Assembly (NCBI GenBank): GCA_048882485.1
Contig: JBHLRP010000002.1
Location: 134,527 to 198,526, forward strand
Direction of reading: 5' to 3'
Length of the DNA stretch: 64,000 nt
DNA from: Candidatus Thorarchaeota archaeon
Lineage (GTDB): Archaea > Asgardarchaeota > Thorarchaeia > Thorarchaeales > Thorarchaeaceae
Position 1 is the stretch's first letter, and each line of letters opens with the position of its first letter. Made by a program: the position numbers and the translations under genes. The notes beneath the pieces are model-generated. The model was not told the DNA's origin. It saw only the letters and a program-made list of their open reading frames with translations, and did not search any database. Of the stretch, positions 23,692 to 25,851 are shown piece after piece.

Positions 23692-25851
23692 TTGAAGCGC
23701 AACTTAACCCTGATGTTTACAATGGGTTTCATCCTTCTAGTCTTTGCTCCTGTATCCGTCAGTGGGACGACAATTAGCCAAAGCCCTGTTATCAACCTCG
23801 ATAGCGTTTTCGTGGATGCGGTAGTTCTACCAAATGGCCGAATAAACGTCACATATTGGATAACCATATCCGTAATTGAGAATTCCCTGGGCGGATTCGA
23901 TTTAGCGGGGATTCAAGAAACCACAATCTATGATTCCGATCGCGCGTACGCTGAGGTGGACGGAAACCGCTACAATCTGGTCGTTGGACAGCTCTCAAAT
24001 GGCTACGCTCTAGACTGGACTCCCAGGACTCAAGCTGGAGAAACAGTCACAGTAGTATTTGGGTATTTCAGTACAAACAGGGTTCTAGAGATGACAACTG
24101 GAACATTTACTCTTGAGGGCTCTGGTCTGCAAGTTACCGGTGATTTGGCTGTTTTCAACTGGGCTCCAGTACAGTGGAGTGTGCCTCTTGATTATGAGAA
24201 TGTGAGAGTAATTTATCCTATTGAAATGCAGGCTTCATGGATTACCGGGGAAGGTGGAATCACCTCAGAGGGAGCAGATTATGCGGGCTATGTTGTGGAT
24301 AGCCGTCAGAGGCTTGAAGACAACTTTGGCAGCTTCTTTCCCTTCGATGAGGAGAACCTTCTTGCCTATCCCTCGTCGGCTTCCGCTGACCCTCGATACT
24401 TCAGCGTTAGTCTAGGACATTCTAATTTGGGCTCCTATGACCACTTCCGTGTATTTCATTATACCAATTGGAGCTTCTATGCTCCGTATCTCGAACCGGG
24501 CGCCCTAGACTATAACACTCCGGAGAATTTCAATGCAGATGCGAACACGGAATTCTCAATTGGTGTGGATGTATTCAATATCGGAGACGCCCCACTCAAC
24601 GATGTCACAGTAACACTCTCTGTGCCAGACAATCTCACTTTGACTTCTGGCCAGGTCTCTACTTATATTGGAACACTCGATGGCGGAGAGAACTCTCATT
24701 TGACTTACCATTTCATCCCCGATAACTTGCCAGAGATTCTTCCCCTCACGTTTCAAATCTCATCATCCAGTCTTAATACAAGTGACTGGGTAACATTTAC
24801 AGTCAACATCTATGTGCGGGAAGTTATTCCTCCCTTGATACCTCCGAATCTCCTGATTTGGGGATCTGCTGGAATAGCGGCCATAGCTGTTGTTTCTTTT
24901 GGCTATCGTCGAATAATGGGTGGATATGGAGCAACATGGGAGGTTGATGAAACAACAAAGGTGTATCAGAGCCCGGAGATTGCCATCCAGACTTTAGGCA
25001 CACCAGGAACTGTTGCAGATCTTGATCCTGTTGAGAGCGCATTCTTTGTCAATACAAATCGCAAGAAACTGGTGTCAATGATTCTCATGTCCTGTGTGAA
25101 AAAAGGTGCAGTAAGGGTGATTTCAACGGACCCCTTACGCCTATCAGATACGGGCCTGAGGTTCGAGGACCCTACTTACTATGAACAGATGTTTGTCGCC
25201 TCTATTAGCAACAATGAGCTTGACCCCGACAGGATTGATGACATGCTGGAAGAACTAGCTGAGAAGGTGCAAGAGAAGTCTTGGGATGCGGACTTCGAGG
25301 CTACTAAGACCCATCATGAGGAGATGGTCGATGGGGCCTGGGAAGACCTGGAAAGTGATCCAACACTTGATGGGCGTGTTGATTACTATTTCAATCGGAG
25401 GTATCACGACACTTGGGCTTGGTATTGGTTCTACATGCATCCTCATCATAACCGAAGAATCAGCCAAGTGTTCACACCTCCAGGGGGGACAATCGCTCCT
25501 CCAAGGGTACCTGATTGGTTTGGTCAGATTGCTGAGGCTGCTGGCCATTCAATTGGCGAAGTTGGACGTGTGGTTGGAGATGTAGCTTCAACCACGGGCC
25601 AAATCATGACGAATGTAACAAACACCATTGGAGATGTCCTTTCGGGAGTTGGTAACATCATCCGAGAACCGCTGAAACCTATCTTGGAGGAGACCAGTCG
25701 TTGCGTGTCTCATGATGCCTGCCACTCTGCATGCGTTTCGCACGATGCATGTCATAGTGCCTGTCACAGCGCATGCCATAGTGCTTGTGTATGCCATAGC
25801 GCCTGTCATAGTGCATGCCACAGTGCATGTGTTTCTGGAGGATTTAGATAA
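23692..25851 (+). CDS. Single-pass membrane protein (signal peptide, DUF2207-like/Ig-like ectodomain) with a cytoplasmic Cys/His CHSA-repeat C-terminal tail
   Basis: N-terminal signal peptide; VVLPNGRINVTYWIT (DUF2207-like start); VFNIGDAPLNDVTVTLSVP (CARDB/DUF11-like Ig); TM ~24850-24906 followed by RR; Cys-rich end. Confidence 0.85.
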   Translation: MKRNLTLMFTMGFILLVFAPVSVSGTTISQSPVINLDSVFVDAVVLPNGRINVTYWITISVIENSLGGFDLAGIQETTIYDSDRAYAEVDGNRYNLVVGQLSNGYALDWTPRTQAGETVTVVFGYFSTNRVLEMTTGTFTLEGSGLQVTGDLAVFNWAPVQWSVPLDYENVRVIYPIEMQASWITGEGGITSEGADYAGYVVDSRQRLEDNFGSFFPFDEENLLAYPSSASADPRYFSVSLGHSNLGSYDHFRVFHYTNWSFYAPYLEPGALDYNTPENFNADANTEFSIGVDVFNIGDAPLNDVTVTLSVPDNLTLTSGQVSTYIGTLDGGENSHLTYHFIPDNLPEILPLTFQISSSSLNTSDWVTFTVNIYVREVIPPLIPPNLLIWGSAGIAAIAVVSFGYRRIMGGYGATWEVDETTKVYQSPEIAIQTLGTPGTVADLDPVESAFFVNTNRKKLVSMILMSCVKKGAVRVISTDPLRLSDTGLRFEDPTYYEQMFVASISNNELDPDRIDDMLEELAEKVQEKSWDADFEATKTHHEEMVDGAWEDLESDPTLDGRVDYYFNRRYHDTWAWYWFYMHPHHNRRISQVFTPPGGTIAPPRVPDWFGQIAEAAGHSIGEVGRVVGDVASTTGQIMTNVTNTIGDVLSGVGNIIREPLKPILEETSRCVSHDACHSACVSHDACHSACHSACHSACVCHSACHSACHSACVSGGFR
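25702..25851 (+). repeat. Coding repeat (CVSHDA)x2 / (CHSA)x7 ending in CVSGGFR
   Basis: Direct translation: 11 Cys and 9 His in 49 aa. Confidence 0.97.

Follow-up and report, generated by a model that had tools for sequence, protein, structure and literature searches.

A 64,000-nucleotide stretch (the window) of contig JBHLRP010000002.1 from a Candidatus Thorarchaeota archaeon encodes a large membrane protein that ends in a tail of repeated CHSA units. Next to it lies the gene of a radical S-adenosylmethionine (SAM) enzyme with a SPASM domain and a PqqD-like RRE, the recognition element of enzymes that mature RiPPs (ribosomally synthesised, post-translationally modified peptides). We propose, with a probability of about 0.7, that the tail is a core-peptide-like substrate of this neighbouring enzyme. 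It would then be a component of a widespread and apparently undescribed radical SAM-dependent system acting on protein tails, whose functional steps we infer from the comparisons presented here. The central elements are the following:

23692..25851, plus strand: gene of the tail-bearing membrane protein (2,160 nt, 719 residues), with signal peptide, ectodomain, transmembrane helix, predicted cytoplasmic domain, and tail
25702..25848, plus strand: the Cys/His tail, 49 codons, with seven CHSA units, CV(SHDA) punctuation, and a CVSGGFR end
21685..23106, minus strand: PqqD(RRE)-radical SAM-SPASM enzyme, divergent from the tail gene, identified by its Pfam domains, adjacency, and co-occurrence
19783..20496, plus strand: membrane-anchored winged-helix and zinc-ribbon protein, the third conserved component of the cassette

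In order, the units of the tail are CVSHDA, CHSA, CVSHDA, three CHSA, CV, three CHSA, and CVSGGFR, and the tail is directly followed by the TAA stop codon (25849-25851). The original prediction held that this repeat is old and kept by purifying selection on the protein, not produced by recent slippage of the DNA. Its descriptive basis was recovered on direct reading: the seven CHSA units are written with the seven different 12-mers it had listed, no two alike; their serine codons include both TCN and AGY forms (TCT once, AGT or AGC six times); the two CVSHDA units differ synonymously, at four sites; and the counts of 11 Cys and 9 His in 49 residues are correct. Seven distinct CHSA units would arise under random synonymous codons with P = 0.72. 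The codons of two units agree in 32 of 84 comparisons (0.381), where the codon usage of the window predicts 0.393. Since this is the random expectation, there is neither homogenisation of the units nor selection for codon diversity.

A rival explanation takes the repeat for neutral low-complexity sequence, recently produced by replication slippage or gene conversion and of no particular function. It would fit the periods of 12, 24, and 42 nt that Tandem Repeats Finder reports in the tail (the 42-nt one at 85%). It would also fit the variation of tail length between distant clades, from about 3 to 18 Cys across the family, the number of units being fixed within clades. However, the 42-nt repeats have 7 of 14 codons in common where 5.5 are expected (P = 0.27), so that protein identity alone suffices to explain this period, and codon sharing between units is no greater than random. 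There is no DNA similarity among the units beyond the constraint of the protein.

This codon sharing test and the comparison of orthologues together rule out recent slippage. We compared 24 Thorarchaeota orthologues from species-representative genomes and found 24 different tail DNAs encoding seven tail proteins. The mean identity of the tails is 76.8% in nucleotides and 98.6% in amino acids, against 70.1% amino acid identity in the 40 residues directly before the tail. The proportion of synonymous differences (pS about 0.92) indicates saturation. Only positions 13, 30, 37, and 48 of the 49 vary. Every Cys and His is invariant, with both possible codons occurring at each of these positions, and 8 of the 10 Ser positions have switched between TCN and AGY. 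When length and composition are counted in 25 Thorarchaeota tails, including the copy of the window (L001) and a frameshifted one (L012), all agree in length (49 residues) and in their numbers of Cys (11), His (9), and units (7). This constancy in the face of saturated synonymous sites, together with a punctuated order common to archaea and bacteria (see below), leaves the neutral explanation with next to no probability. That the tail is old and under strong selection at the protein level is strongly supported, as had been predicted.

We looked for orthologues that lack the tail or have lost its Cys residues and found no genuine one. The two apparent cases are artefacts: P0004 ends in LSLIHI, which we take to be a translated Nextera adapter, and P0003 results from a frameshift, the tail being intact in another frame of the same locus (L012). 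There, at JBHLRC010000156.1, positions 2463-4580, the frameshift parts a 636-residue body (P0003) from the intact tail in a 68-residue frame; an error of assembly or a recent pseudogene may account for this. An overlapping antisense gene (there are minus-strand open reading frames over the tail) and a conserved RNA structure over the tail were also considered, and both are ruled out by the saturation of synonymous sites. A separate observation concerns the choice of serine codons. AGY is used in six of the seven CHSA serines, compared with 34% of the serine codons in the long open reading frames of the window. In the orthologues, too, the serines of CHSA are mostly AGY, and those of CVSHDA and CVSGG mostly TCN. 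This split looks like a trace of the ancestry of the units, which is not erasable by one synonymous step.

The tail is not confined to Thorarchaeota. A protein search returned 89 relatives, of which nearly all complete ones bear such a tail and several of the rest are cut short by the end of a contig. Scanning one genome per species gave at least 548 loci encoding such tails, and when 1.84 billion cluster representatives were searched with a profile, 326 clusters matched with E of 1e-10 or lower. The archaeal loci are from Thorarchaeota, other Asgard archaea, and Bathyarchaeia/Nitrososphaerota (Thermoproteota); the bacterial ones are spread over eight or more phyla, including Chloroflexota, Spirochaetota, Armatimonadota, Elusimicrobiota, Omnitrophota, Caldisericota, and Myxococcota. 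We analysed tails and loci in detail in 80 of the 548 or more loci, and counted adjacency over 81. In the 80 loci, Cys is followed by His in 98.6% of cases, then by Ser in 97%, and then by Ala in 99.5%. Runs of CHSA, CV breaks, and a final CVS form a punctuated order that is common to Thorarchaeota and Chloroflexota. The terminal GG-F-R had been read as a defined end, and this holds in part: nearly all tails close with C-V-S and two to four further residues, often GG followed by F, R, H, or W, but their final residues are variable. Ahead of the tail, T-S-R-C is found in nearly all Thorarchaeota (T-S-K-C once) and G-Y-D-A-C in most Chloroflexota. The proteins of the family have 560-950 residues. 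No short stand-alone precursor with the repeat was found, all short matches being contig-end fragments of the large protein.

Such a composition could also mean that the tail is an unmodified module that binds metal directly through its free Cys thiolates and its His imidazoles, in the manner of metallothioneins, Csp, or Hpn, or as an Fe-S/Zn/Ni/Cu site. The original prediction had named a metallothionein-like or Fe-S/Zn/Ni-binding sensor tail as an alternative or additional role. The radical SAM enzyme would then act elsewhere or only help to load a cluster. The 20 potential ligands in 49 residues are all invariant, the i/i+4 spacing of Cys is reminiscent of CXXXC in copper-storage proteins, the tail has no confident fold in AlphaFold2 in the absence of a cofactor, and a zinc-ribbon partner and a metallophosphoesterase are encoded nearby. 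Yet the fixation of Ala (99.5%) and Ser (97%) matches that of Cys and His, which goes beyond the demands of ligand chemistry alone. Known His/Cys-rich metal tails vary freely in length, whereas all 25 Thorarchaeota tails have exactly 49 residues. Scans with Pfam and NCBIfam gave no match to a metallothionein or metal-domain family, and sister tails free of His retain the pairing with a radical SAM enzyme (see below). Lastly, an unmodified module leaves the RRE, the tight linkage, and the co-occurrence without a peptide target. We therefore consider it unlikely.

The main determinant of our proposal, that the tail is modified by the neighbouring enzyme, is the co-conserved RRE-radical SAM-SPASM enzyme itself, which the original prediction had brought in only among the conditions of a check. 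Its three domains are recognised above the Pfam cut-offs: the PqqD-like RRE (PF05402, 40.8 bits for a cut-off of 23.4, residues 37-94), the radical SAM core (PF04055, Radical_SAM, 101.2 bits for 29.5), and the SPASM domain (PF13186, 27.6 bits for 21.5). In 36 sequences of the enzyme, the CX3CX2C motif (C132, C136, C139) is invariant, and so are C346, C360, G373, C378, C415, C418, C424, and C428 in the SPASM region, with seven Cys. The auxiliary-cluster pattern of SPASM domains (CX9-15GX4C plus CX2CX5CX3C) is present. The invariant residues of the N-terminal part are R30, D33, P40, N47, L54, and D84. The nearest solved sequences are SkfB, PqqE, BlsE, Tes, CteB, and SuiB. The enzyme thus has all three domains of the RiPP-type class of RRE-radical SAM-SPASM enzymes; the short adjacent precursor peptide of that class was not found. 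It reaches no NCBIfam equivalog (the best is AhbD, 155.7 bits for a cut-off of 500), and the models for NirJ, PqqE, MftC, HxsC, ACGX, PapB, StsB, CefB, ScmE/F, and SbtM are far below their cut-offs. Four relatives of the enzyme from bacteria and other archaea show the same shortfall.

The best of these scores, although far below the cut-offs, are those of the haem-pathway enzymes AhbD and NirJ2, and CHSACH formally reads CX3CH, a known variant of the haem-c motif. One might thus see in the overlapping C-x3-C-H stretches attachment sites of c-type haem, and in the tail a multihaem wire. But the AhbD/NirJ matches span only the generic radical SAM core, and the Cys spacings (x5, x3, x1) are inconsistent for sites with paired Cys. 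Five haems in 49 residues are sterically implausible, the tail is predicted to be cytoplasmic while haem-c is normally attached outside the cytoplasm, and the (CA)n sister tails are free of His. This makes a haem wire very improbable. A formylglycine motif of the anSME type (C/S-x-P/A-x-R) was also considered for the tail and was ruled out, being absent.

An orthologue of the radical SAM enzyme (40-50% identity, E 1e-105 to 1e-144) adjoins the tail gene in 72 of the 81 loci. It is divergent and upstream in Thorarchaeota; in most bacterial loci it is downstream, on the same strand, and usually within about 100 bp of the stop of the tail gene. Loci without an adjacent copy are mostly cut by contig ends, and in three genomes of this kind the orthologue is encoded elsewhere (E 1e-208 to 1e-218). 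Because the enzyme adjoins the tail gene in archaea and in many bacteria, the tail is most likely its substrate.

We then scored both genes in 77 genomes of the window's own family, which are related and therefore do not count as independent observations. Both genes are present in 52 genomes and both absent from 17, seven of which are 91-98% complete. Five genomes have the tail without the enzyme: three are contig cuts, one is a scaffold with N gaps, and one has an enzyme truncated to residues 1-238. Three genomes have the enzyme without the tail: two are incomplete, and in the third 81 codons are all that is left of the tail gene. In at least three genera (g2, g5, and g14), the gene pair is present in a minority of the sampled genomes and is otherwise jointly missing.

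Further evidence comes from a sister system. In other Asgard families and in some bacteria, there are genes for DUF2207-like proteins whose C-terminus consists of a run of Gly, a (CA)n array, and GGGR (loci L086, L090, L091, L092, and L094; proteins P0114-P0142, with ends GGGR or GGAG). In the loci examined, a paralogous radical SAM-SPASM gene follows the (CA)n gene within about 0.7 kb, usually directly. Variants of these tails are punctuated by C-V-S or G, and hybrid tails, in which CHS[A/N] units are combined with CACACA-GGGW, are found in Promethearchaeota (P0047, P0059). In a quick maximum-likelihood tree made with IQ-TREE, the enzymes associated with CA-type and CHxA-type tails form two clades, each with a Shimodaira-Hasegawa-like approximate likelihood-ratio support of 100. 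Subclades of the enzyme track subtypes of the tail, and there is only one major transition of tail type in the tree. The clade of the enzyme thus matches the type of the tail. Both tail types contain Cys and Ala, are punctuated by C-V-S, and have an end rich in Gly. This makes Cys, with small residues next to it, the likely target of the enzyme, and the comparison points to His as a type-specific addition. In the same tree, the enzymes of Nitrososphaerota/Thermoproteota branch inside a bacterial clade (Spirochaetota, Chloroflexota, Armatimonadota), those of Thorarchaeota forming their own clade, a pattern that suggests transfer between domains.

The protein that carries the tail is encoded by a single-copy gene in its own genome. 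A crude hydropathy scan delimits an N-terminal segment of the signal type, an ectodomain of about 360 residues and one strong transmembrane helix (about residues 397-415) with basic residues after it. By the positive-inside rule, these residues imply that the last 300 residues should be cytoplasmic, so that the tail would face the cytoplasm. In locus L089, about 68 residues around the transmembrane helix are deleted in frame from the tail protein. The window protein has no Pfam or NCBIfam match, with PF09972 and TIGR04222 absent at E up to 0.01, and a search of PDB sequences with it found none either. Some tail-bearing relatives come closer to DUF2207 (PF09972, cut-off 24.4 bits): P0053 passes with 26.8 bits, and P0012 (21.2) and P0025 (22.4) remain below. 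The bacterial relative of L028 scores 34.3 bits with TIGR04222, for a cut-off of 43. Relatives are grouped with DUF2207 clusters in the protein atlas. A precomputed label, PF27846, is attached to some matches, including a 102-residue fragment that holds the tail; this newer Pfam entry may cover part of the tail protein. The CHSA stretch would thus be the C-terminal tail of a single-pass DUF2207/TIGR04222-like membrane protein.

An AlphaFold2 model built on an alignment of 79 sequences has a confidence (pLDDT) near 90 at about residues 440-590 and of 37-44 in the tail. In this model, an unconfident tail stands beside a confident domain, as one would expect if the tail requires a modification or a cofactor. 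With VIA-align, the model of the cytoplasmic domain (24949-25650 of the window, about residues 440-640) is closest to GOLPH3 (3kn1, Z 6.8, 159 residues aligned), then to yeast Vps74 (Z 5.2), the next match being at 3.8. This likeness is moderate and below the level that would prove a shared fold. There is no match to Pfam GPP34 in the tail protein, and Foldseek gave no significant match for the C-terminal model.

Taken with the modification by the neighbouring enzyme that we propose, these observations suggest a sequence of events. The RRE would dock on the cytoplasmic region ahead of the tail, and the radical SAM core would abstract hydrogen atoms from residues of the tail, installing Cys-centred modifications repeatedly along the array. 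The leading candidates are thioether bridges of the sactipeptide or ranthipeptide type, from Cys to carbons of an adjacent Ser/Asp, Ala, or His; alternative products would be heterocycles derived from Cys or cyclophanes centred on His. By analogy with SkfB, CteB, PapB, and QhpD, we put thioether chemistry specifically at somewhat worse than even odds. The modified tail would remain attached to the membrane protein and, with its nine His, may act as a rigid metal- or redox-active module, perhaps together with the membrane-anchored winged-helix and zinc-ribbon partner. In its most specific form—the enzyme turns the periodic CHSA or CA array of Cys into a cross-linked, metal- or redox-active 'ladder' kept on a receptor-like protein—the proposal is more tentative still.

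Several points weigh against it. The substrate is assigned here through the linkage of genes, which is no proof of an enzyme-substrate relation, and a membrane protein of 719 residues is an unusual substrate for RRE-bearing radical SAM maturases. The system is dispensable, as about a quarter of the genomes of the family have neither gene. A thioether mechanism does not call for strictly conserved His, and the (CA)n sister tails are free of it; in the CHSA tails His must therefore have a further role, at which the proposal only guesses. The topology is taken from a crude hydropathy scan. Finally, two loci show the genes in what are natural states of decay: in L089 (G187:C14) the enzyme is cut to residues 1-238 and the tail is intact, and in L087 (G205:C8) the enzyme and its neighbours are intact and the first 81 codons of the tail gene remain.

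Among the other genes of the cassette, the one for the winged-helix and zinc-ribbon protein is the most widely shared. It is present in 15 Thorarchaeota loci, and the product is homologous to a protein of about 165 residues with a transmembrane helix, a winged helix-turn-helix, and a zinc ribbon (hhalign 97.9%, E 3e-13), whose gene follows the cassette in 34 of the 56 non-Thorarchaeota loci, bacterial ones included. In the sister system of L090, the product of the upstream gene has two CxxC pairs and resembles a zinc ribbon by eye, a likeness that is only visual. The remaining genes around the tail gene in the window are these:

23207..23608, plus strand: protein of 133 residues, just upstream of the tail gene; Thorarchaeota only
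25851..26618, plus strand: metallophosphoesterase (Pfam Metallophos, E 4.5e-15), a lineage-specific accessory
27095..28318, plus strand: downstream protein of 407 residues with an invariant HEYEHH (HExxH-type) motif, in 19-20 Thorarchaeota loci
20507..21664, minus strand: pyridoxal phosphate (PLP) enzyme with alanine-racemase N-terminal and D-serine-dehydratase domains (Pfam), 20 nt downstream of the radical SAM gene

The 133-residue protein is found in 20 Thorarchaeota loci (66-96% identity) and in no other locus, and has no match in Pfam or NCBIfam. The ATG of the metallophosphoesterase overlaps the TAA of the tail gene (TAATG). A copy of it (58-98% identity) lies downstream of the tail gene in 17 Thorarchaeota loci, mostly directly abutting; the only other matches are weak ones in L025 and L027 (24% identity, opposite strand, about 7 kb off). 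The 407-residue protein, in which HEYEHH spans residues 234-239, has no match in Pfam, NCBIfam, or PDB sequences. It could be a metallopeptidase or a hydroxylase of the HExxH type, and is a candidate metalloenzyme accessory. The PLP enzyme is restricted to 17 loci of Thorarchaeota. In two genomes (G220:C46:7173-8573 and G032:C20:24559-25959), the radical SAM enzyme lies in a frame of 894 or 900 residues instead of about 480, and these lengths suggest that the frames run on into the downstream PLP gene, which would point to coupling or fusion. Outside Thorarchaeota, a coiled-coil protein of about 400 residues and of no known family is encoded in 41 of the 56 loci (e.g., L028, 3238-6970), and an InhA-like protein with a MAM domain in 17 bacterial loci. 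The three full loci of Bathyarchaeia/Nitrososphaerota (L025-L027) have the order radical SAM enzyme, coiled-coil protein, tail protein. The coiled-coil protein has no match among PDB sequences, and an identity with the 407-residue HExxH protein was ruled out, the two being unrelated on comparison.

Two of these neighbours bear on whether the product stays on the protein, as we propose, or is released. In the latter case, the system would be a true RiPP with a giant leader. A linked protease, which would be the HExxH protein for Thorarchaeota and the InhA-like MAM protein for Chloroflexota, would cleave the modified tail and set it free as a peptide rich in Cys and His, for instance a metallophore or a signal. 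The combination of RRE, radical SAM, and SPASM is that of a classical RiPP maturase, the candidate proteases are encoded in 19-20 Thorarchaeota and 17 bacterial loci, respectively, and the boundary ahead of the tail (T-S-R-C or G-Y-D-A-C) is well conserved. However, the two candidates are lineage-specific and mutually unrelated, and the HExxH protein matches no peptidase family. HExxH proteins of RiPP clusters can moreover be hydroxylases, as PMC12452194 relates from a reference it cites. The examined loci have no conserved transporter, no short stand-alone peptide was found to bear the tail, and the cytoplasmic domain and ectodomain are conserved as those of a folded protein, which argues for a function of the whole molecule. 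Release thus seems even less probable than direct binding of metals by an unmodified tail.

We compared the system with those already described. Its closest precedent is in proteins of the TIGR04222 family, subsets of which are membrane proteins with Cys-containing, Ser/Gly-rich C-terminal tails encoded beside MNIO enzymes; it was proposed that the tail is modified and that the rest of the protein aids biogenesis (PMC12452194, Microb Genom 2025). Both cases associate a large membrane protein having a low-complexity Cys tail at its C-terminus with an adjacent gene for a RiPP-type enzyme. They differ in the partner (RRE-radical SAM-SPASM here, MNIO there), in the tail (a strict periodic array of CHSA or CA here, Ser/Gly-rich there), in its predicted location (cytoplasmic here, periplasmic there), and in taxonomy, since our family includes Asgard archaea and Thermoproteota, whereas TIGR04222 is mostly from Actinomycetota. 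That study links no radical SAM enzyme to TIGR04222 proteins and does not treat CHSA or CA arrays (PMC12452194). Canonical DUF2207 proteins (PF09972) have the same succession of signal peptide, DUF2207-type ectodomain, transmembrane helix, and low-complexity C-terminus, and some tail-bearing relatives pass the Pfam cut-off (P0053, above); in contrast, the protein of the window is not significant for PF09972. Canonical members are paired with LemA and have Gly-rich tails (PMC12631010, in part), and our literature search found no report of a radical SAM partner for DUF2207 proteins.

The enzyme resembles those of sactipeptides and ranthipeptides (SkfB, AlbA, CteB/SCIFF, PapB/freyrasin) and of QhpD/QhpC in having an RRE at the N-terminus, a radical SAM core, and a SPASM domain with auxiliary clusters, in being paired with a Cys-rich sequence of regular Cys spacing, and in counting SkfB and CteB among its nearest solved sequences. 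QhpD illustrates that such enzymes can cross-link a protein subunit. Unlike in these systems, the putative substrate is the tail of a 719-residue membrane protein, the C-H-S-A unit has no described counterpart, and there is no evident leader-peptide gene, pair of protease and transporter, or released product. The enzyme also scores far below the corresponding models (StsB 110.7 of 625 bits, PapB 85.9 of 340, with AlbA and SkfB also far below among the matches listed). The systems of the type described by Haft (ACGX, TIGR04340; the Cys-every-fifth system CefA/CefB, NF038107; the His-Xaa-Ser system HxsA-D) likewise combine a SPASM-type radical SAM enzyme with a target of short tandem units that contain Cys or His, and ACGX has a period of four with Ala-Cys. 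However, their targets are short peptides, our tail protein matches no NCBIfam model, and the enzyme scores 94.5 of 400 bits with ACGX, 109.9 of 268 with HxsC, and 79.6 of 600 with CefB. Our literature search found no biochemical characterisation of the ACGX, CefA/CefB, or HxsA-D systems. We also found no paper in the searchable literature, and no family in NCBIfam (June 2026), that describes the cassette.

To our knowledge, almost all that is known of RRE-bearing radical SAM-SPASM enzymes concerns short peptides that are released. In the present system, such an enzyme is paired with a large membrane protein's tail in two domains of life, with tails encoded in the genomes of at least 548 species. 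For genome annotation, this gives a recognisable cassette of three genes (tail protein, radical SAM enzyme, and winged-helix and zinc-ribbon protein) with two types of tails. If the tail is the substrate, RiPP-type chemistry extends to whole proteins, and the seven identical units of four residues would provide a clean model for processive modification and might reveal a new metal- or redox-active appendage of proteins. The cross-linked ladder, if true, would be a new class of post-translational modification of proteins, distinct from released RiPPs and common to Asgard archaea, Thermoproteota, and many bacterial phyla, with a membrane-tethered winged-helix and zinc-ribbon protein as its partner.

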